Positions 13,201-24,011 of a DNA stretch of 33,836 nt are shown here, piece by piece. The stretch lies in contig DAINPX010000001.1 in NCBI GenBank assembly GCA_036743235.1, positions 1 through 33,836 on the forward strand. Direction: 5' to 3'. This DNA comes from Melioribacteraceae bacterium. GTDB lineage: Bacteria > Bacteroidota > Ignavibacteria > Ignavibacteriales > Melioribacteraceae. A program made the translations under genes and the position numbers. Position 1 is the stretch's first letter; every line of letters starts with the position of its first letter. The notes under the pieces were generated by a model. It saw only the letters and a program-made list of their open reading frames with translations. It was not told where the DNA came from and searched no databases.

Positions 13201-15648
13201 TTATATTTTATCAATTATTTTAATTAAATCGGCAAATACCGCCGCAGCCGTAACCTCTAATCCCGCACCGGGACCTTGAATTATTAATGGATTATTATTA
13301 TAATATTTACTTTTAATAACTACCATATTATCGGTTAAACATAAATTATAAAACGGACTATTAGGTCCAATAGACTTAATTCCTATTTTTGCTTTTCCGT
13401 TTTTATATTCCGCAATATATTTTAATCTTTCATTTTTGCTTTCGGACTGTAACCGCTTATTTTCATATTCTTTATCTACTTCAGATAAGTTGTTATAAAA
13501 ATCATCCAAAGTGCAATCAAAAAGTAATTCATTATCAATTATCTTTTCTTGTTCAATCGCATTAGGTTCTATGACAATTCCCAATTCGCGTATTAGAATA
13601 ATTATTTTTCGTAAAACATCAAATCCCGATAAATCGTCTCGTGGGTCCGGTTCGCTAAATCCTTTTTTGCTTGCTTTTTTTATTGCTTTAGATAACGGTA
13701 CATCCTTAGAAATAATATTAAAAATATACCCCAGCGTACCCGATAATACTGCCTCAATTTCTTCTATTTCATCTCCTGCGTTTTTCAAATCGTTTAGCGA
13801 AGTTAATATCGGTAATCCGGCTCCAACGGTTGCTTCGTAATTAAAAAAAGTTTTGTTTTTTTGTAATTCCAAAAGTTTTTGATAATAATTGTAATCTATT
13901 GAATTTGCCGTTTTATTGGCAGTAACAATACTCACTTTGTTTTTAAGCAAATTCAAGTATTCTTTTGCAAGTTCCTTTCCTGATGTACAATCAACAAAAA
14001 TTTTATTTTTTAATTTAGAGTTAATAATTTGTTCAACAAATTTATTATCGGTATAATTTTTTGCTATAAAATTAAAATTACTTCCTAAGTCCTTATCGTT
14101 TATCCCCTCAATACTCCAAATCATTTTTTTACTGTTTGAAACCCCTATTAAATTAAGTCTTATATTTTTTTGCTTTAACAAATATTCTTTTCTATTTATA
14201 AGTATTTCTATAAATTTATTACCTATCTTTCCAATTCCTGCCACAAACAAATATACATCTTTTACACCGTTAAAAAAGAATTTTTTGTGTATTAAATTTA
14301 GTGCATTCTTTAAATCCGTTTTATTTATGACCATTGAAATGTTTAACTCGCTACTTCCTTGGGCAATAGCAACAATATTAATTTTTTCGTCTCCTAAGGC
14401 TAAAAATAAATTTCCGGCAATTCCGGCAGTGCTTCTCATATTTTCGCCAACTACCGCTACAATTGATAATTCACTCTCTATCTTAATATCGTTAACTAAA
14501 CCATCTTTTAATTCGTAATAGAATTCATTTCTAATTACTTCTTGTGCTTTTTCGGCAAATTTGGGTAATACTGCAAAACAAATAGAATGTTCAGAGGATG
14601 CTTGAGTAATTAATATTATATTAATTCCTTCGTTTGCCAATACTCCAAACAACCTTTTGGCAATACCTGCTACACCTACCATTCCCGGACCTTGAACACT
14701 AATTAAAGCTACTTCGTCTATTGAAGAAATTCCTTTTATTGCATATTTGTCTTTTGTAGAACTACTTTGAACTAATGTACCAATAAAATTAGGATTAAAA
14801 GTGTTTTTTATTCTAATCGGAATATTTTTAACCATTGCCGGATACATAGTTGGCGGATGAATTACTTTTGCACCGAAGTGGGATAGTTCCATTGCTTCTT
14901 CGTAAGATAAAAATGAAACAGGAAAAGCATCTTTTACTTTTCGCGGATCTGCCGTTAATACACCGTCAACATCCGTCCATATTTCAATTTCTTCAACATT
15001 TAGTGCTGCTCCTATTATTGATGCCGTATAATCCGATCCTCCCCGCCCTAATGTTGTTGTTTCGTTTAAATTATTTGAAGCAATAAACCCTGTAATTATT
15101 TCAACTTTATTACTTTTTTCAAAATAATTTTTAATTAGTTTTTCCGAAATTTCTAAATTAACTTTTGCCGAACCAAATAGTGAATCGGTTTTAATAATTT
15201 CTCTTGCATCGCAATAATTGGCATTAATTCCTAATGTAATAAAATATTCCGATATTGCATAATTAGAAATTCTTTCTCCATAACTCAACAAATTATCCAT
15301 AGTTTTAGGAGAAATTTCTTTTATAAGATATATACCATGCAGCAAATCTTTTATTTCATTTAAAAATATTTCTACCTGATATTGTATTTTTTTTGTATTC
15401 TTTTTAATTAGCTTTGTTACAATTTCTTTGGTTTTTTCTACTAAAATATTAAAATTGGTTTTATAGCTAATATCTCCTTTAGATGCCGTTAATCCTATTT
15501 CTATTAATAAATCCGTTACGCCTTGAAAAGCCGAAAAAACAACGGCTATTTTTTCGTTATTTTTTAATTTGTTTTTTATTATGCTTCCTACATCTGCAAT
15601 TCTATCGGCACTACCTACAGAAGAACCTCCAAATTTTAAAACTTTCAT
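13201..15648 (-). CDS. thrA: Bifunctional aspartokinase / homoserine dehydrogenase (paralogue II, thr-linked)
   Basis: 815 aa. It has KFGGSSV and TTTLGRGGSDYTA...WTDVDGVLTADPR (kinase domain), a central ACT region, and a C-terminal HSDH domain (GIGKIGN, LSGTLGYIF). GAGGAG Shine-Dalgarno sequence. It is followed directly by thrB and thrC. Confidence 0.92.
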   Translation of the reverse strand: MKVLKFGGSSVGSADRIADVGSIIKNKLKNNEKIAVVFSAFQGVTDLLIEIGLTASKGDISYKTNFNILVEKTKEIVTKLIKKNTKKIQYQVEIFLNEIKDLLHGIYLIKEISPKTMDNLLSYGERISNYAISEYFITLGINANYCDAREIIKTDSLFGSAKVNLEISEKLIKNYFEKSNKVEIITGFIASNNLNETTTLGRGGSDYTASIIGAALNVEEIEIWTDVDGVLTADPRKVKDAFPVSFLSYEEAMELSHFGAKVIHPPTMYPAMVKNIPIRIKNTFNPNFIGTLVQSSSTKDKYAIKGISSIDEVALISVQGPGMVGVAGIAKRLFGVLANEGINIILITQASSEHSICFAVLPKFAEKAQEVIRNEFYYELKDGLVNDIKIESELSIVAVVGENMRSTAGIAGNLFLALGDEKINIVAIAQGSSELNISMVINKTDLKNALNLIHKKFFFNGVKDVYLFVAGIGKIGNKFIEILINRKEYLLKQKNIRLNLIGVSNSKKMIWSIEGINDKDLGSNFNFIAKNYTDNKFVEQIINSKLKNKIFVDCTSGKELAKEYLNLLKNKVSIVTANKTANSIDYNYYQKLLELQKNKTFFNYEATVGAGLPILTSLNDLKNAGDEIEEIEAVLSGTLGYIFNIISKDVPLSKAIKKASKKGFSEPDPRDDLSGFDVLRKIIILIRELGIVIEPNAIEQEKIIDNELLFDCTLDDFYNNLSEVDKEYENKRLQSESKNERLKYIAEYKNGKAKIGIKSIGPNSPFYNLCLTDNMVVIKSKYYNNNPLIIQGPGAGLEVTAAAVFADLIKIIDKI

Positions 15649-15673
15649 AACTCCTCATCTACTTGTTTAAAAT

Positions 15674-15707
15674 AAAAAAACCGACCTAGTTAGACTAAAG
15701 TCGGTTT
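15674..15707 (-). terminator. Intrinsic terminator upstream of thrA (attenuator 3:4 helix)
   Basis: Minus strand reads AAACCGAC-(14-nt loop)-GTCGGTTT, followed by TTTTATTTT. It ends 25 nt before the thrA ATG. Confidence 0.6.
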
Positions 15708-15729
15708 AAAAGAATAGTATTCACCAACT

Positions 15730-15789
15730 TCAGTCTGTTAGACTGCCGGTAGTTATAACGGATGTTAGTGAAATACACGAGGATAACAT
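15730..15789 (-). CDS. Candidate thr leader peptide, 19 aa: MLSSCISLTSVITTGSLTD
   Basis: Manual translation. The Ile-Thr-Thr codons (ATA ACT ACC) end 4 nt upstream of region 1. The TGA stop lies inside region 2. There is no obvious Shine-Dalgarno sequence, and trpL lacks one too. Confidence 0.4.
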   Translation of the reverse strand: MLSSCISLTSVITTGSLTD

Positions 15790-15853
15790 ATGGACAAACC
15801 TTATAATTTATAATTATGCAAATAATTAAATAACTTTTCAAATTTACAGTGTA

Positions 15854-15907: not shown

Positions 15908-18361
15908 TTAATAGAAAAAATTTGCAATTTTAATTATATCTGCCAAAATACCTCCGGATGTAATTTTAAAACCTGCTCCGGGTCCTTTTAATAACACGGG
16001 TGTTTCATTATAATAAACTGTAGTAAACGATATGCTATTCTCGTTATTTCTTAGCTCGTAAAATGGATGATTTTTATCAACCTGCTTTAGTCTTACACTT
16101 GCTTTATTTCCTTTATATTCGGCAATATATCGCAATACCATATTGTTACTTGCAGCTATTTTTCTCTTTTCTTCAAATAAAGAATTATATTCTTTTAAAT
16201 ACTCAAAAAACTCTTCGCCTTTATTTTCTTGTAAGTCGTCAATCAATTTTTCAATTTGTATTTCTTCAAAATTAATATTAAATCCGGCTTCTCTTATTAA
16301 GACCAGCAATTTTGTTGCAATGTCACTTCCGTCTAAATCTACCATCGGATTTTTTTCGGTATAACCCAATTCACATGCTTCTTTTACAGCATCAGAGAAA
16401 GATTTACTCTCATTTATTGAGTTAAATACATAACTTAAAGTACCGCTTAGTACTGCCTCAATTTCAATTATCTTATCTCCGCTTAAAATTAAATCTTGTA
16501 AAGTATTTACAAACGGTAAGCCGGCTCCTACATTAGTTTCAAAAACTAACTTTGCGTTATATTTTTTTGCAGCATTTTTAAGTTCATTATATATTTTATT
16601 TTTAACTGTACAGGCTTTTTTATTTTGGGTAATTATTGAAACGGATTTTTTTAACAGACCTAAATAATAATTTACTACTAACTCACAACCGGTACAATCA
16701 ACAAAAACCGAATTGGGCAAATTTCCCTTAATAATTGTTTGTATAAATTCATCGGTATTGCTTAACTTCCCTTCATATAATAATTCTTCTTCCCATGCTT
16801 TAACATTAATTCCGCTTTCTTTTATTAGCATTTTTCTTGTATTGGCAACCCCCACAACTCTAATTTCCAAATTCAAATTATTAAATAAATAATTTAACTG
16901 ATTATTTAATTGGGCAAAAAGAGTTTTACCCAACTCTCCAGTTCCTAATACAAACACATTTATTACTTTTAGATGTGATAAAAAAAACGAATCGTGAATT
17001 GCATTTAATGCTTTTCCTATATCACTTTTTGAAATTACCAAAGAGATATTAAGACGGGAAGACCCTTGAGCCGCAGCTTCTATTTTAATTCCGTTTCTTC
17101 CCAAAGCCTGATATATTTTTTCCGGTACACCCGGTAAATTTCTTATATTCTCGCCAACAACCGCAATTACTGCAACATCTTTATCTGTTACAATTCCGTT
17201 TATTAATCCGTCATTTATTTCATGTTTTAGTTCTTCTGTTATTAATTTTTCTGCTCTTTGTGCATTTTCTTCATAAATGCTAAAACAAATTGAATGACCG
17301 GATGAAGCTTGAGATATTAATATAATACTAATGTTATTGTAGGCAAGCAAATTAAATATTCTACCGGCTAATGTGGCAACATCTATTAAGCCTGTTCCTT
17401 TTACATTAATAAGGGCTACATTTTCAATTGTTGAAATACCGGTAACGGCATAGTCGTTTGTTATTGTTTCATTTGTAATTACTGTACCTTTAAATACCGG
17501 ATTGAATGTATTTTTAATAATTATGGGTATCCCCTTTATTAAAGCCGGACGTATTGTTGGTGGGTAAATTACCTTTGCTCCAAAATGGCTCATTTCCAAT
17601 GCTTCTTCATAAGACATTTTTTCAATAGGCAAAGCTCTTTTTACTTTTCGGGGGTCTGCGGTTAATACTCCGTCAACATCAGTCCATATTTGAATCTCTT
17701 TAACATCTAATGCAGCTCCTAAAATGGATGCGGTATAATCGCTACCGCCTCGCCCCAATGTTGTGGTTTCACCTTCTATAGTACTACCTATAAACCCCGT
17801 TACTACTTTTATTATTTGCTTACTTTTCAAGTAATCATTTATTATTTTATCCGTCTTACTAAATAATACCCTTGCATTCCCAAAATTATTGTCTGTTTTT
17901 ATCAGTTTCCTGCTATCAACATATTCGGCTTTAAGTCCGGCACTATTTAAAGCTGCTGTTATTATTGTGCACGATAGTCTTTCTCCAAAACTCATAATAT
18001 GGTCTTTGCTGCGTGGGGATAGTTCCTTAATTAACCAAATGCCGTATAAAAGTTTTTCTAATTCATCTAATAGTAAGTTTACTTTTCTTCTAACCAAGTA
18101 CAAACTTTCGCCGGTAGTTAATTTTTCTATTACGGTTAGATGAATGTTTTTTATATACGAAAATCCGTTTTTATATTCATTCTTTCCTAAAGCCGCGTTT
18201 TCACCCGTGCTTATTAGTATATTGGTAATTGTTTGAAATGCGGAAAATACTAAAATTAAACTTCTGTTTTCATTATCTTCTTTAATTATATCAATTACTT
18301 TTTTAATGGTCTCGGGACTGCCAACCGATGAACCGCCAAATTTATATACAACAGTTTCCAC
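15908..18361 (-). CDS. Bifunctional aspartokinase / homoserine dehydrogenase (paralogue I, met-linked, metL-like)
   Basis: 817 aa, with the same domain order as thrA (YKFGGSSV, TTTLGRGGSDYTA, WTDVDGVLTADPR, ACT region, HSDH LSGTLSYVF). The start is GTG at 18361, preceded by AAGGGA. It begins 13 nt after the stop of the PLP enzyme gene. Confidence 0.9.
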   Translation of the reverse strand: METVVYKFGGSSVGSPETIKKVIDIIKEDNENRSLILVFSAFQTITNILISTGENAALGKNEYKNGFSYIKNIHLTVIEKLTTGESLYLVRRKVNLLLDELEKLLYGIWLIKELSPRSKDHIMSFGERLSCTIITAALNSAGLKAEYVDSRKLIKTDNNFGNARVLFSKTDKIINDYLKSKQIIKVVTGFIGSTIEGETTTLGRGGSDYTASILGAALDVKEIQIWTDVDGVLTADPRKVKRALPIEKMSYEEALEMSHFGAKVIYPPTIRPALIKGIPIIIKNTFNPVFKGTVITNETITNDYAVTGISTIENVALINVKGTGLIDVATLAGRIFNLLAYNNISIILISQASSGHSICFSIYEENAQRAEKLITEELKHEINDGLINGIVTDKDVAVIAVVGENIRNLPGVPEKIYQALGRNGIKIEAAAQGSSRLNISLVISKSDIGKALNAIHDSFFLSHLKVINVFVLGTGELGKTLFAQLNNQLNYLFNNLNLEIRVVGVANTRKMLIKESGINVKAWEEELLYEGKLSNTDEFIQTIIKGNLPNSVFVDCTGCELVVNYYLGLLKKSVSIITQNKKACTVKNKIYNELKNAAKKYNAKLVFETNVGAGLPFVNTLQDLILSGDKIIEIEAVLSGTLSYVFNSINESKSFSDAVKEACELGYTEKNPMVDLDGSDIATKLLVLIREAGFNINFEEIQIEKLIDDLQENKGEEFFEYLKEYNSLFEEKRKIAASNNMVLRYIAEYKGNKASVRLKQVDKNHPFYELRNNENSISFTTVYYNETPVLLKGPGAGFKITSGGILADIIKIANFFY

Positions 18362-18374
18362 TTAATATTCCCTT

Positions 18375-19529
18375 TTATTTTAAACTTATACTTTTTTCTA
18401 TAGCTTGTTTTATATCATTAATTAAGTCTTCGGCATCTTCAAGCCCTACAGAAAGTCTTACCAAACTATCCGTAATTCCCCCTGCCAATCTTTTTTCTCG
18501 GGGTATGGATTTATGGGTCATGCTTGCGGGATGACTTACCAAACTTTTTGCTCCTCCCAAACTTTCTGCAAGTTTAAATAATTTTGTAGAAGTTACAAAT
18601 TTAGTTGCTACTTCTTCTGTATCTTCTTCAAAAGAAATTGAAATCATACTACCCGGTTGTTTTTGTTGTTTTTTTACAATCTCATAATTTTTATGTGCCG
18701 GTAATCCCGGATAGTAAACATTTTTAATACCGGGTTGTTTACTCAAAAATTCGGCTATCTTTTTAGCATTTTCCACATGCTTTTCGACTCTTATTTTTAA
18801 GGTTTCCAAACTTCTTATTAATAACCAACTATCAAATGGTGATAGAACGGCACCGGTAGCATTTTGAACGTATTTTAATTTCTCACCAATTTCGATATCT
18901 TTTGCAACAACCAACCCTGATAAAACATCGGTATGTCCGCCAATATATTTAGTTGCACTATGAATAACTATATCAGCCCCAAGTTTTAACGGATTTTGAA
19001 AAATCGGAGATGCGAAAGTATTATCTACACATAACAATAAATTGTGTTCTTTTGCTATTTTGGCAATTTCTTCAATATCCGATATTTTTAACAATGGATT
19101 AGTCGGGCTTTCTAACCAAATTAATTTTGTTTTTTCGTTTATCGCTTTTTTAACATTATTAACATCGGTTGTATCAACAAAATTTATAGTAATTCCGAAA
19201 TTATTATATATTGTAGTAAACAATCTAAACGCCCCGCCGTAAATATCGTCAACTGCTAAAACTTCATCACCTGTTTTTAATAACTTTACTACCGAATCAA
19301 TTGCAGAAAGCCCGCTTGCAAAAGCTAATCCAACTGTTCCTCCTTCTAATTGTGCAATAATGGTTTCCAATATTTTTCTTGTAGGGTTATTTGTTCTTGT
19401 ATAATCAAACCCTTTATTTACTCCGGGTGATTCTTGTACATATGTAGAAGTTTGATAAATTGGTACTGCTAACGAACCGGTTAAAGGATCTACAGGTATT
19501 GCTTCCAATATTTGTGTTAATTCGTTCAT
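18375..19529 (-). CDS. Cys/Met-metabolism PLP-dependent enzyme (cystathionine gamma-synthase / beta-lyase family)
   Basis: 384 aa. It has the family hallmark ...HSATKYIGGHTD with the PLP lysine, plus YTRTNNPT and SLGGAKSL. AGGAGA Shine-Dalgarno sequence. The exact reaction (MetB, MetC or MetZ) cannot be decided from sequence alone. Confidence 0.85.
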   Translation of the reverse strand: MNELTQILEAIPVDPLTGSLAVPIYQTSTYVQESPGVNKGFDYTRTNNPTRKILETIIAQLEGGTVGLAFASGLSAIDSVVKLLKTGDEVLAVDDIYGGAFRLFTTIYNNFGITINFVDTTDVNNVKKAINEKTKLIWLESPTNPLLKISDIEEIAKIAKEHNLLLCVDNTFASPIFQNPLKLGADIVIHSATKYIGGHTDVLSGLVVAKDIEIGEKLKYVQNATGAVLSPFDSWLLIRSLETLKIRVEKHVENAKKIAEFLSKQPGIKNVYYPGLPAHKNYEIVKKQQKQPGSMISISFEEDTEEVATKFVTSTKLFKLAESLGGAKSLVSHPASMTHKSIPREKRLAGGITDSLVRLSVGLEDAEDLINDIKQAIEKSISLK

Positions 19530-19567
19530 TTTTTTCTCCTATCGTTTATATTATTTTGTTATTTTTT

Positions 19568-19665
19568 AAAACAAAAAACCCCGCTAAAAAGCGGGGTTAT
19601 AAACTTTCACCTTATACTTTTTAGCACTGTTTTAAGTCGTTGCAATATGTAATAAATCTCGACTG
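19568..19665 (-). promoter_or_regulatory. Riboswitch unit 2 (aptamer plus intrinsic terminator), candidate SAM-II-like
   Basis: Minus strand reads AGTCG-AGATTTATTACATATTGCAA-CGACT, then TAAAACAGTGCTAAAAAGTATAAGG..., then the terminator CCCCGC-TTTTTA-GCGGGG followed by TTTTTTGTTTT. The tail GCTAAAAAG is perfectly complementary to CTTTTTAGC in the terminator. Confidence 0.65.
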
Positions 19666-19673
19666 TGGTATTT

Positions 19674-19770
19674 AAAACAAAAAACCCGCCAAATAGCGGG
19701 AAATATTAAAAACCTTTTGCTATTTAGCTATTTGTTTAATGTCGTTGCAATTTGCTTTAAATCCCGACAA
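19674..19770 (-). promoter_or_regulatory. Riboswitch unit 1 (aptamer plus intrinsic terminator), candidate SAM-II-like
   Basis: Minus strand reads TGTCG-GGATTTAAAGCAAATTGCAA-CGACA, then TTAAACAAATAGCTAAATAGCAAAAGG..., then the terminator CCCGC-TATTTG-GCGGG followed by TTTTTTGTTTT. The tail AAATAGC is complementary to GCTATTT in the terminator. Confidence 0.65.
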
Positions 19771-19790
19771 ATTTTTAAAGAACTATCGCA

Positions 19791-19818
19791 AATATAATAT
19801 ATTTTTTTGACATTGCAA
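19791..19818 (-). promoter_or_regulatory. Promoter candidate for the riboswitch-controlled operon
   Basis: Minus strand reads TTGCAA (19818..19813), a 16-nt spacer, then TATATT (19796..19791). The overlapping TATATTTG also fits the Bacteroidetes-type TAnnTTTG -7 motif. Confidence 0.35.
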
Positions 19819-19922
19819 CAGTTCGGTCAAAAATATTATGTTTTTTTTCTTCTTCCTAATTTTATATATTTAAACTTGTTTACAAATAAAAATCTATTAA
19901 ATAATAAAATATTTCAGGTAAA

Positions 19923-21404
19923 ATGAAACCTAATATAAACTTATACGAAATTAACACACGCGTATGGATAAAGAACTTTTATCCCGATAGTTCGACACCT
20001 ATTACAATTGACCAAGTGCCTGACAGTTATTGGGATAATTTAGCGGACTTGGGGATAGATTTTGTTTGGCTTATGGGTGTTTGGAAAACTTGCACTTCTA
20101 CAATAGATAAATATTGCTTTGAAGAAGGATTGGTTAAAGAATATTCCAATGCTTTAAAAGATTGGACACATGACGATGTTATTGGTTCTCCTTATTCTAT
20201 TGATAAATATGTTATTAATCCTATATTGGGCGGTAACGAAAGTATTATTAAATTAAAAGACAAATTGAATAAACGCGGTATTAGATTAATGCTGGATTTT
20301 GTTTCTAACCATTATAGTGCCGATACCTCGTTATTAAATTCTAACCCGGAATTGTTCCTACCTGCAGATAGTGAGATTTATGCACGAGATCCTTACACAT
20401 ATTTCAAACCATTTAAAATGGATGACGTAATTTATGCTCATGGTCGAGATCCTTTCTTTCCTGCATGGAAAGATACCATTCAAGTAAATTATTTTTGTAA
20501 AGAAGCACGTTCATTTCAAATTAATTTATTAAAAGAAATTTCAAATCTTTGCGATGGATTACGTTGCGATATGGCAATGTTAACACTTAATAATGTATTT
20601 AATAACACTTGGGGCGGTGCTTTAAATAAAATGGGCTACTCTATGCCCGAAACTCAATTTTGGCAAGAAGCTATTGCCAACGTTAAAATTAACAAACCCG
20701 ATTTTATTTTTCTTGCCGAAGCTTATTGGGATTTGGAATGGGAACTGCAACAACTCGGTTTTGATTATACTTATGATAAAAAACTGATTGACAGAATTTC
20801 ATGCGGTATGCCTAAAGATATATTAGGTCATCTTTATGCCGATCCCGACTATCAAGAGCGTTCTTGTCGCTTTATAGAAAACCACGATGAAAAGCGAGCT
20901 ATTGCTTTATTGGGCAAAGAAAAATCGATGGCTGCTGCTACTCTTATAAGCACTTTAACCGGAATGAGAATGTTTTATGATGGACAGTTTGAAGGAGAAA
21001 AAATTAAATTACCCGTACAATTGGGGCGTAAACCAAAAGAACCCGTAATTAAATGTTTGCAAGAATATTATTATAAATTATTAAAAATTACCAAAAATGA
21101 TATATTTAAATACGGTGATTGGCATTTGCTGAGTTTATTGCCGCTTATTGATAATAATTTTACATATAGAAACTTAATTGCTTATGAATGGCGTTATAAA
21201 TACGAACGTATTTTGGTTGTTGTCAATTTATCTAACGTTACCTCGTTTGCTAAAATTAAACTAGATGTGGTCGGATACCCTGATAATTTTGAACTTAGAG
21301 ATATTTTAAATAATATTAATTACACTCGCAGCAGTTTAGAGTGTTATCACCAAGGACTTTATGTTGAGCTAAAACCTTATCGCTCTCATATTTTTAATTA
21401 TTAA
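19923..21404 (+). CDS. Alpha-amylase family (GH13-like) glycoside hydrolase, apparently cytoplasmic
   Basis: 493 aa. It has GIDFVWLMGVW, MLDFVSNH, GLRCDMAM, FLAEAYWDLEW and FIENHDE, which correspond to GH13 conserved regions I-IV. No signal peptide is present. Confidence 0.7.
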   Translation: MKPNINLYEINTRVWIKNFYPDSSTPITIDQVPDSYWDNLADLGIDFVWLMGVWKTCTSTIDKYCFEEGLVKEYSNALKDWTHDDVIGSPYSIDKYVINPILGGNESIIKLKDKLNKRGIRLMLDFVSNHYSADTSLLNSNPELFLPADSEIYARDPYTYFKPFKMDDVIYAHGRDPFFPAWKDTIQVNYFCKEARSFQINLLKEISNLCDGLRCDMAMLTLNNVFNNTWGGALNKMGYSMPETQFWQEAIANVKINKPDFIFLAEAYWDLEWELQQLGFDYTYDKKLIDRISCGMPKDILGHLYADPDYQERSCRFIENHDEKRAIALLGKEKSMAAATLISTLTGMRMFYDGQFEGEKIKLPVQLGRKPKEPVIKCLQEYYYKLLKITKNDIFKYGDWHLLSLLPLIDNNFTYRNLIAYEWRYKYERILVVVNLSNVTSFAKIKLDVVGYPDNFELRDILNNINYTRSSLECYHQGLYVELKPYRSHIFNY

Positions 21405-21964: not shown

Positions 21965-22136
21965 TAGTTTCTCCAATATTTATAAAATACTTTAGACGAA
22001 ATTAACAAAAATTTGTTTATAAATTTTCGCTTTTTTGGTTTTCTTTAAAAAATATTAAAAAATACTTGAATACTAATTATTTGTTCGTTAATTTATTTAA
22101 CATAATATAATAATTTATTTTCTATACGAGTTGATT

Positions 22137-24011
22137 ATGGACGCAAATGTTGTTAAAGAATTTTTAAAGAAAATTGTTCTATTTAAAGACTTAAGTGATA
22201 TTGAACTTGAGCTTATTACTAATTTAATTGAAATTAAAACCTTTGAAAAGGATGCGTTTTTATTTTACGAAAACAATCCTCGCAAAAATTTGTTTGTTAT
22301 TTACGAAGGTGAAGTTGAGTTATTTAAACGTACCCCTTTTGGTGAAGAAAAACGCTTGGCATTTTTTAGCCGATACGATTTTATTGGTGAAGGAGCATTA
22401 TTAGATGACTCGCCACATAGCACTAATGCACGTGCTTTATTAGAATCTACTATTTTTGTTTTAACTCGCGAAAAATTCCAAAGTTTAATTGATGATTACG
22501 GTTCTATTGCTGTTAAAATTTATAATCATGTTGCACGTGTAATTTCGCGTAGAATGAGACAAACCAATGCACGTGTTATAAATATTGCAGCCCAATACGA
22601 AAGCGGACGAACAAGAATTGAACATGACTTATTAGGCGATAGAGAAGTGCCTTACGAATATTATTACGGTGTTCAAACTTTGCGTGCTTTAGAAAATTTT
22701 AGCATTAGCAGTGTTGCCCTTTCTGCTTATCCTACTTTAATTGAAGGTCTTGCTATTGTTAAAATGGCTGCAGCAAAAGCCAATTTCGATTTGGGATTAC
22801 TTTCTAAACCGGTTGCGGACGCCATTGTGCAAGCATGTAATGAGATTTTAAACGGTAAACTTCATCCACATTTTGTTGTAGATATGATTCAAGGCGGTGC
22901 AGGTACTTCTACAAACATGAATGCAAACGAAGTGATTGCAAACCGTGCATTAGAAATTTTAGGCTACGAGAAAGGCGAATACAAATATTGCCATCCTAAT
23001 AATCACGTTAATTTATCTCAGTCAACTAACGATGCTTACCCTACAGCCGTTAAAATTGCATTAATTAAATCTAACAAAACTTTGGTTGCCGTACTTAAGT
23101 TATTGGTAGATTCTTTTAGAAAAAAAGGGAAAGAGTTTGCACATATTTTAAAAATGGGAAGAACCCAATTGCAAGATGCTGTTCCAATGACTTTAGGTCA
23201 GGAATTTGAAGCCTATGCATCAACCTTAAGCGAGGAAATTAGCAGACTTGAAGATAACGTTAAACTTTTCTTGGAAGTAAATATGGGTGCAACTGCTATT
23301 GGCACAGGCATTAACAGCGACCCCGGTTATAGTGCTAAAGTTGTTAAACACTTACAAGAAATTACGGGCTTTAATATTGTGTTGGCTCCTAATTTAGTTG
23401 AAGCCACACAAGATACCGGTGCTTTTATTATGTATTCATCAGCCGTAAAAAGATTAGCTGTTAAATTAAGTAAAATATCTAACGATTTAAGATTGCTTTC
23501 AAGTGGTCCCCGTGCCGGTTTGGGTGAAATCAATCTACCTAAGATGCAACCCGGTTCTTCAATTATGCCGGGCAAGGTAAATCCTGTAATACCCGAAGTT
23601 GTAAATCAAATTGCTTTTAAGGTTATTGGCAACGATCTTACGGTTACACTGGCTGCAGAAGCCGGTCAATTGGAACTTAACGTAATGGAGCCGGTAATTG
23701 TTCAAAGTCTATTTGAATCTATCGAAATGTTAAAAAACGGGATGACTACTTTAATGTATCGTTGTATAGACGGAATTACTGCAAACGAACAAAAATGTAG
23801 GGATTATATATTAAACAGTATCGGTATTGTAACTGCTTTAAATCCAGTTTTGGGTTACGAAACATGTTCTGCATTAGCCAAAGAATCTTTAGAAACTAAC
23901 CGTGGTGTATATGAATTAGTATTGGAACAAAAACTTTTATCAAAAGAAGTTTTGGACGAGTTACTTGCTCCCGAAAACATGATTGCACCGCAAAAGATGA
24001 CCAAAGAATAA
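22137..24011 (+). CDS. aspA: Aspartate ammonia-lyase with an N-terminal cyclic-nucleotide-binding-like (CAP_ED) domain
   Basis: The C-terminal ~465 aa begin RIEHDLLGDREVPYEYYYGVQTLRALENF and carry the signature GSSIMPGKVNPVIPE. The N-terminal ~155 aa (LFKDLSD...FYENNP...FVIYEGEVELF...FIGEGALLDDSPHSTNARA) form a cNMP-binding beta-roll fold. The start is ATG 22137; the track's TTG start is at 22131. Confidence 0.88.
   Translation: MDANVVKEFLKKIVLFKDLSDIELELITNLIEIKTFEKDAFLFYENNPRKNLFVIYEGEVELFKRTPFGEEKRLAFFSRYDFIGEGALLDDSPHSTNARALLESTIFVLTREKFQSLIDDYGSIAVKIYNHVARVISRRMRQTNARVINIAAQYESGRTRIEHDLLGDREVPYEYYYGVQTLRALENFSISSVALSAYPTLIEGLAIVKMAAAKANFDLGLLSKPVADAIVQACNEILNGKLHPHFVVDMIQGGAGTSTNMNANEVIANRALEILGYEKGEYKYCHPNNHVNLSQSTNDAYPTAVKIALIKSNKTLVAVLKLLVDSFRKKGKEFAHILKMGRTQLQDAVPMTLGQEFEAYASTLSEEISRLEDNVKLFLEVNMGATAIGTGINSDPGYSAKVVKHLQEITGFNIVLAPNLVEATQDTGAFIMYSSAVKRLAVKLSKISNDLRLLSSGPRAGLGEINLPKMQPGSSIMPGKVNPVIPEVVNQIAFKVIGNDLTVTLAAEAGQLELNVMEPVIVQSLFESIEMLKNGMTTLMYRCIDGITANEQKCRDYILNSIGIVTALNPVLGYETCSALAKESLETNRGVYELVLEQKLLSKEVLDELLAPENMIAPQKMTKE

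Follow-up and report, generated by a model that had tools for sequence, protein, structure and literature searches.

What regulates the methionine-branch gene pair on the minus strand of contig DAINPX010000001.1 (assembly GCA_036743235.1)? The 33,836 nucleotides analysed here, called the window throughout, encode a pyridoxal phosphate (PLP) enzyme followed by a bifunctional aspartate kinase/homoserine dehydrogenase I (AK-HSDH I), and the leader ahead of these two genes holds two similar units between positions 19568 and 19770. A preliminary description of the sequence had read them as two complete riboswitch-plus-terminator units in tandem, with candidate aptamers of the SAM-II class, whose ligand is S-adenosylmethionine (SAM). 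We addressed this reading with covariance models, an alignment of related leaders, terminator scans and RNA folding. The leader very probably consists of two independent, complete SAM-II-type riboswitches arranged in series, each sensing SAM and each controlling an intrinsic terminator.

SAM-II riboswitches are known from Proteobacteria and Bacteroidetes and are often linked to terminators (PMC2258182), and a long-loop variant is known from Bacteroidetes (PMC2864571). Two riboswitches in series are uncommon, as the preliminary description remarked, and the arrangement has already been catalogued: Sherlock et al. (2022) listed 44 tandem SAM-II doublets, some with a terminator stem for each aptamer, and read them as giving a pseudo-cooperative, steeper and more digital response (PMC9481103).

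Layout of the leader

From 19820 down to 19520, the minus strand (on which all window features lie unless marked otherwise) carries in order a predicted promoter, the two units (repeat period ~105 nt), the ribosome-binding site (RBS) and the ATG of the PLP enzyme gene. The span from 19770 to 19568 runs from the first P1 base of unit 1 to the final U of the second terminator, and each of its ~105-nt units contains a P1 helix, a GAUUU/UUGC/GCUAAA core, a GC-rich hairpin and a U-tract. A 5-bp P1 closes a 20-nt loop that starts with GAUUU and ends with UUGCAA; the linker UUAAAC or UAAAAC, the GCUAAA block, the G+C-rich hairpin and the tract UUUUUUGUUUU follow. Aligned with each other, the two units show a mean column identity of 83% over 111 columns, in a region whose G+C content is only 25-30%. 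Two same-class aptamers, each with its own expression platform, define a tandem; 19568-19769 contains two aptamers and two terminators, and no open reading frame (ORF) was found in the leader between or within the units. Both units that had been described as complete riboswitch-plus-terminator elements are thus present.

The aptamer of unit 1 (19719-19769) is built from P1 (UGUCG at 19769-19765 with CGACA at 19744-19740), the GAUUU of loop L1 (19763-19759), the 5' strands of P2a (GC, 19755-19754) and P2b (UUGC, 19750-19747), and the 3' strand or tail GCUAAAUAGC (19728-19719). That of unit 2 (19615-19664) has P1 from AGUCG (19664-19660) and CGACU (19639-19635), GAUUU at 19658-19654, a P2a 5' strand UAC (19651-19649), UUGC of P2b at 19645-19642 and the tail GCUAAAAAGU (19625-19616), its whole 3' strand being GCUAAAAAGUA (19625-19615). 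The predicted equivalents of U44, the residue that reads the SAM adenine in the known structure, are 19726 in unit 1 and 19623 in unit 2.

Assignment to the SAM-II class

All SAM classes in Rfam 15 were tested, and the class match was obtained by applying E-value thresholds to the 401-nt region 19500-19900. RF00521 (SAM-II) was the top match in this region and aligned over its full length with both units, at 33.8 bits (E 4.5e-6) for unit 1 (19703-19778) and 24.0 bits (E 0.002) for unit 2 (19600-19673); the elements GAUUU, UUGCA, UUAAAcAA and GCUAAA sit beneath the corresponding consensus blocks. The SAM-I, SAM-IV, SAM-V, SAM-VI and SAM/SAH (S-adenosylhomocysteine) models gave no match at E <= 10 in the same region, and the other Rfam families matched there only weakly and by chance, on the terminators. 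SAM-II models are hence the only ones that match among the SAM classes, which bears out the guess made earlier from the motifs. The model R1, built from the units themselves, scores 86.4 bits on unit 1 and 77.8 bits on unit 2 and finds no additional copy elsewhere in the 33.8-kb window.

The same leader was sought among relatives, for which 80 loci from genomes and 80 from metagenomes that encode the PLP enzyme were available (designated here by L numbers). Five of their units exceed the RF00521 gathering score of 36 bits, namely one each in L006 (42.5), L008 (41.1) and L005 (37.0), in all three the second unit, and both units of L007 (36.2 and 36.1). L007 is a SAM-II doublet by Rfam's own criteria, and the gathering cut-off is an operational limit rather than a structural feature. 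R1 had no match at E < 0.05 beyond the Ignavibacteriales loci; outside this clade it gave only weak matches of ~21 bits, on SAM-II long-loop elements of Aequorivita-type loci. A BLAST search of the leader against plasmids found no match. The preliminary description had placed the element with the SAM-II riboswitches of Alphaproteobacteria and Bacteroidetes; the class stands and the host group does not, the relatives pointing to a Melioribacteraceae-like member of Ignavibacteriota.

Several related classes were considered and set aside. The long-loop variant (RF01726) scores 25.7 bits on unit 2 and 21.8 bits on the other unit against a gathering score of 44, and the units have a plain 20-nt loop without the extra hairpin, an inserted hairpin being predicted for the second unit of L003 only. 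SAM-V (RF01826) has no match at E <= 10; each unit has a terminator as its expression platform, and neither includes the RBS. SAM-I (RF00162) has no match within the window, its model matching distant orthologous loci only. The published spermidine-sensing variant (PMC10853860) derives from SAM-I, not from SAM-II.

Aptamer fold and covariation

In the SAM-II structure 2QWY the P1 loop pairs, through its 3' half, with the 3' tail; P2b comprises U21-A45 and adjacent pairs, U44 stays unpaired and reads the SAM adenine, a triplex has as its third strand the L1 uridines U10-U12, placed in the major groove, and the sulfonium is set against the carbonyls of U11 and U21 (PMC3303485). Both window units contain GAUUU, UUGC and GCUAAA, blocks that hardly vary over 32 aligned units from 17 loci, and by their positions GAUUU, UUGC and GC-U-AAA correspond to the SAM contacts U10-U12, U21/G22 and U44/A45 (roles from PMC3303485).

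The P1 and pseudoknot pairs were counted over these 32 units, with slides of one to three columns and 500 shuffles as controls. In all, 84% of the cells are paired, a figure that falls to 19-44% once the partners are displaced by 1-3 columns, and none of the 500 shuffles reached the observed covariation score. P1, with 5 bp and a 20-nt loop in both window units, is paired in 91.7% of cells; its outer (fifth) pair reads U-A in the first unit and A-U in the second, a difference already noted in the preliminary description, and takes the forms CG (11 units), UA (8) and AU (5) across the set. P2a, which has 3-5 bp in unit 2, covaries as well: its pair 27-66 is AU in 15 units, GC in 14 and GU in two, while pair 26-67 occurs as four types (GC, AU, UA or GU). 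P2b is 99% paired and invariant.

The pseudoknot had been drawn in another register, with a GATTTA loop pairing with a TAAA(T/A) tail. Read as Watson-Crick pairs, GAUUUA and UAAA(U/A) show no case of both partners changing together, and 27 of 32 units cannot form the end pair, so this register was rejected; the tail pairs instead with the UUGC block and the loop's 3' half. The alignment supports the canonical register, UUGC with GC(U)AA followed by P2a, which is preferred because it covaries. The GAUUU run is better read, by analogy with the known structure, as the predicted triplex strand than as a Watson-Crick partner.

Two ordinary attenuators or terminators, dependent on a protein or a leader peptide and without any ligand sensing, might resemble SAM-II fortuitously in AT-rich sequence. 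The low G+C content (25-30%), the shortness of the A/U-rich motifs GAUUU and GCUAAA and the weak matches of many unrelated Rfam families on the terminators would all suit such an origin. It is nevertheless scarcely credible, given that RF00521 aligns full length twice with all conserved blocks in order, that units of relatives lie above a curated cut-off, that the pseudoknot pairs covary, that R1 matches nothing else in the window or in non-Ignavibacteriales loci at E < 0.05, and that no ORF lies between or within the units.

Terminators, antiterminators and the proposed switch

A terminator scan of 19300-20100 (800 nt) returned exactly two terminators, where 0.4 were expected from shuffles. 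The intrinsic terminator of unit 1 (19674-19700) consists of the hairpin CCCGCUAUUUGGCGGG (19700-19685) and the tract UUUUUUGUUUU, with the U-tract at 19684-19674; that of unit 2 (19568-19598) has a 9-bp hairpin (19598-19577) followed by the same tract, the U-tract ending at 19568. Each tail is complementary over 10 bp to its own terminator, GCUAAAUAGC to GCUAUUUGGC (19697-19688) in unit 1 and GCUAAAAAGU to GCUUUUUAGC (19592-19583) in unit 2, the partner reaching from the last two bases of the terminator 5' arm across the loop to the first bases of the 3' arm. The complementarity with compensatory differences that had been reported is therefore real, and longer than reported.

This complementarity is maintained in relatives. 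AAAUAGC/GCUAUUU has become AAACAGC/GCUGUUU in L004, L005, L006 and L008, and the loss of one A in unit 2 of L004 is mirrored by the loss of one U in its partner. At least 27 of 33 units keep eight or more centre pairs between tail and terminator, and at least 26 of 33 have a terminator hairpin of -7 kcal/mol or lower plus a U-tract; both counts are lower bounds because automatic terminator parsing mis-cut L003 unit 2, L005 unit 1, L082 unit 2 and L086 unit 1. Tails bind their own terminator with a mean of -11.9 kcal/mol, compared with -8.1 kcal/mol for the terminator of the other unit type. When the nascent transcripts of the two window units were ended at the antiterminator partner, both folded into P1 plus antiterminator, and with the tail blocked, as a mimic of the SAM-bound pseudoknot, the terminator formed. 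For unit 1 the antiterminator state is the minimum at equilibrium as well, at -20.4 kcal/mol; blocking the tail leaves -14.6 kcal/mol.

These observations suggest the following switch. Without SAM, about 10 bp would form between the 3' strand GCUAAAnAGn and a stretch running from the end of the terminator 5' arm over the loop into the start of the 3' arm; with this antiterminator formed, RNA polymerase would read through. With SAM bound, the same strand would be held in an H-type pseudoknot (P2b, UUGC with GC(U)AA, then P2a), with GAUUU in the major groove; its sequestration would let the terminator form and transcription stop. The OFF logic of the preliminary description, in which the tail is either antiterminator or held in a pseudoknot, is supported by the conserved, compensated complementarity and by the folding, and only its GATTTA/TAAA pairing register falls. 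To reach the PLP enzyme and AK-HSDH genes a transcript would have to escape both terminators, so that full-length output would be the product of two read-through fractions. According to the model of PMC9481103, this product would bring tighter repression and a steeper, pseudo-cooperative response to SAM. That SAM binds, that termination in vivo depends on it and that the dose response takes this shape are all predictions from the sequence.

Age of the pair and the working of each unit

The nearest PLP loci, with 76-91% amino-acid identity, come from metagenome-assembled genomes labelled Melioribacteraceae, Ignavibacteriaceae or Ignavibacteriales (Ignavibacteriota). The same leader occurs in 17 relatives' loci (L001-L009 and L081-L088), that is, in 18 loci counting the window; 16 of the 18 give two strong R1 matches, and both units are kept in 17 if L003 is counted. 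In L003 unit 1 is joined by a second unit that R1 matches weakly (32 bits) and whose aptamer loop holds a ~75-nt insertion; L002 carries one unit only.

Copies of unit 1 share 82% aptamer identity with one another and copies of unit 2 share 77%, compared with 70% between the two units of one genome; in 31 of 32 cases a unit is most similar to the unit of the same number from a different genome. The duplication must therefore predate these lineages, with both copies maintained since. By this measure unit 1 and unit 2 are separate orthologous lineages, and the duplication is old.

Two loci depart from the pattern in ways worth recording. In L002:3780-3880 (+) a lone unit 2 follows the promoter after ~60 nt of unrelated sequence, unit 1 having been lost or never present. 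The second unit of L003 (L003:3781-3900, plus strand) has GAGUU instead of GAUUU as L1, and its insert, predicted to close by UAUCAG/CUGAUA, recalls the SAM-II long-loop variant; the hairpin is a prediction only, since it is no more stable than shuffled sequence (z = -0.38).

Several observations weigh against two working SAM-II riboswitches. The default Rfam scan of the whole window, at gathering thresholds, returned zero matches, both units falling below the RF00521 gathering score (33.8 and 24.0 versus 36 bits). The four core P1 pairs and P2b never vary and, being invariant, yield no covariation evidence. At 2 bp the P2a of unit 1 is very short, and over all units P2a is paired in only 62% of cells. 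In full-length unit 2 the terminator is more stable at equilibrium than the antiterminator (-22.4 versus -19.8 kcal/mol), and read-through must therefore rely on co-transcriptional kinetics. Finally, L006 and L007 each have a weak terminator in the second unit.

Some of these points would also fit a leader in which one unit alone works and the other is a decaying duplicate, at most a constitutive or leaky terminator. Unit 2 scores far lower than unit 1 on RF00521, its terminator wins at equilibrium even when the tail is free, the second-unit terminators of L006 and L007 are weak, the second-unit loop of L003 is broken by its ~75-nt insertion, and L002 manages with a single unit. Decay would, however, hardly leave all SAM-contact nucleotides in place in both units, nor keep P1, P2a and the antiterminator complementarity of both through compensatory changes. 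The separate orthologous lineages persist across genomes whose PLP protein is only 76-91% identical, both L007 units lie above the Rfam cut-off, and the unit above it in L005, L006 and L008 is the second one. We consider a single working unit improbable and retain the reading of two complete riboswitches in series.

SAM-I at the same position in distant orthologues

Distant orthologous loci scanned with Rfam have SAM-I and a terminator ahead of the same gene in seven of seven cases (L010, L015, L022, L026, L043, L070 and L073). These calls rest on Rfam only, and a regular expression missed SAM-I in L022, L026, L043 and L073. The presence of SAM-I at the same position supports SAM as the signal.

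This bears on the idea that the units have a SAM-II fold and answer to another ligand, SAH or a SAM-related metabolite, or that they belong to the related SAM-V class. Scores under both the RF00521 and the RF01726 cut-offs could be taken that way, and variants of altered specificity are known in other classes, such as the spermidine-sensing SAM-I variants (PMC10853860). Yet all nucleotides that contact SAM in 2QWY are unchanged, the regulated genes belong to methionine-branch biosynthesis, bona fide SAM-I stands at the same position in distant orthologues, SAM-V has no match at E <= 10, and the platform is a terminator, as opposed to the RBS sequestration typical of SAM-V (PMC9481103). Such a change of ligand or class is highly improbable, and SAM-sensing SAM-II units remain our reading.

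A bolder proposal, which we hold to be possible but rather doubtful, is that the doublet is more than a redundant pair. It has two forms, one a two-stage device with differently tuned units, the other an in-situ swap of riboswitch class. Unit 1, with its 2-bp P2a and an antiterminator more stable than the terminator, would be ON-biased at equilibrium; unit 2, with 3-5 bp in P2a and a terminator more stable than the antiterminator, would be OFF-biased and dependent on folding kinetics. This different bias might give each unit a SAM threshold or a time scale of response of its own. As to the swap, the SAM-II pair would have replaced an ancestral SAM-I in place, with the promoter and a start-site element, AGTTCTT, retained; if true, this would be a traceable replacement of riboswitch class within one leader.

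A separate arrangement was seen in Aequorivita (L073:3560-3619, minus strand, and L073:3746-3864, plus strand; also L079 and L141-L147), where a SAM-II long-loop riboswitch (64 bits) and a SAM-I lie on opposite strands ~130 nt apart and serve divergent genes. One genome therefore carries both the SAM-I and the SAM-II class. An early survey had not found the two together in any single species (PMC2258182).

Promoter and regulated genes

A Bacteroidota-type promoter is predicted from the sequence at 19789-19818, with TTG at 19818-19816 and, 19 nt on, the -7 box TATATTTG (19796-19789); from it we infer the position of the transcription start. A TAnnTTTG box stands at the orthologous position in about 100 loci. 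The motif AGTTCTT (19778-19784) lies at or just past the predicted start and is kept whichever riboswitch class follows.

In the window (19778-19796) and in ~100 of 149 orthologous loci, (C)AGTTCTT lies 3-10 nt after the TAnnTTTG -7 box. All the DNA compared contains 1190 TAnnTTTG boxes, of which 108 are followed by GTTC[TA]T, and 99 of these 108 are the promoter of the PLP gene. The motif is found in Bacteroidota and Ignavibacteriota, ahead of SAM-I or the SAM-II pair alike. By these counts AGTTCTT is a gene-specific element at the predicted transcription start, independent of riboswitch class.

The first regulated gene (18375-19540, including an RBS AGGAG at 19540-19536, ~30 nt past the second terminator, with the ATG at 19529) encodes a PLP enzyme of 384 aa from the cystathionine gamma-synthase/lyase family. 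The second gene of the predicted operon begins 13 nt after it (15908-18361) and encodes the bifunctional AK-HSDH I of 817 aa (NF006959, 934 bits); L001, L002, L003 and L009 carry this pair of genes too. Downstream, a second AK-HSDH gene with thrB, thrC and asd stands behind its own leader and terminator, and the riboswitch pair should therefore control the methionine-branch gene pair only.

The two bifunctional AK-HSDH I genes are paralogues arranged head to tail (13201-15648 and 15908-18361), one under the SAM-II pair and the other behind a thr-type leader, which resembles the metL/thrA isozyme split of E. coli. The thr-type leader, ~130 nt long and unrelated to the first, lies between them at 15660-15800, ahead of the thrA-like AK-HSDH gene, thrB, thrC and asd, and ends with the terminator AAACCGAC...GUCGGUUUUUUU. 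It is near-identical in L001, L009 and L002; in L003 its long helix is kept by compensatory changes, CACUAACAUC/GAAGUUGGUG having become CAUCAACUU/AAGUUGAUG, and the short ORF (MLSSCISLTSVITTGSLTD) is not retained. It matches no Rfam family and may be an undescribed cis-regulatory RNA.

Elsewhere in the window, the aspartate ammonia-lyase ORF at 22131-24011 (+) has, if its TTG start is real, an N-terminal extension of ~160 aa, which matches the family 2B encapsulin shell model at positions 66-240 (E 1.6e-12).

Comparison with known systems

The arrangement fits the catalogued tandem SAM-II doublets exactly and is of an already known kind; what is known of the SAM-II mechanism or of tandem riboswitches in general is unchanged by it. 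Its novelty is modest and concerns the phylum, the compact sub-type below both Rfam cut-offs, the age of the pair and the apparent in-place replacement of SAM-I. The literature searched contained no mention of Ignavibacteria together with SAM-II, and the distribution of the class is extended to Ignavibacteriota. Since the window copies lie under both SAM-II cut-offs, they stay blank in standard annotation. The locus offers a clean natural terminator-plus-terminator SAM-II doublet with both units long maintained, of a compact design in which one 10-nt strand would double as pseudoknot strand and antiterminator strand. With SAM-I behind the same promoter element in neighbouring lineages, it is also a tidy case for studying the replacement of one riboswitch class by another.

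Compared with classic SAM-II (the metA/metX element, RF00521, 2QWY), the units share P1 and the H-type pseudoknot, the GAUUU/UUGC/GC-U-AAA core with its unpaired U, the methionine gene context and the frequent coupling to intrinsic terminators (PMC2258182, PMC3303485). They differ in their host, Ignavibacteriota instead of Proteobacteria or Bacteroidetes, in scoring just under the Rfam cut-off, in the short 20-nt P1 loop, and in a minimal A/U-rich P2a of 2-5 bp where the alpha-proteobacterial consensus has a G+C-rich one. The SAM-I riboswitches (RF00162) of Bacteroidota and other Ignavibacteriota share with them the gene, the promoter with AGTTCTT, the position and the terminator-based OFF logic; SAM-I itself is an unrelated four-way-junction aptamer in single copy, whereas the Ignavibacteriales clade has two small pseudoknot aptamers instead.

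Among tandem systems, the tandem thiamine pyrophosphate (TPP) riboswitches of Bacillus anthracis (cited in PMC9481103) likewise set two complete same-class aptamer-plus-terminator units in series and give a steeper response; ligand, aptamer class and phylum are different, and the TPP system has been tested experimentally, while the window pair is known from sequence. The SAM-II/SAM-V tandem of 'Candidatus Pelagibacter' also begins with SAM-II and a terminator and continues with a second SAM sensor of the same binding-site architecture; there the second unit is SAM-V and acts translationally at the RBS, whereas here both units are SAM-II-like and terminator-controlling. The closest counterparts are the doublets of Sherlock et al. 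(PMC9481103), compared here by their published description only, which have two SAM-II aptamers per leader, no ORF between them and in some cases a terminator each; what the present leader adds is the evidence that its pair is old and conserved, unit 1 and unit 2 being recognisable as separate lineages.

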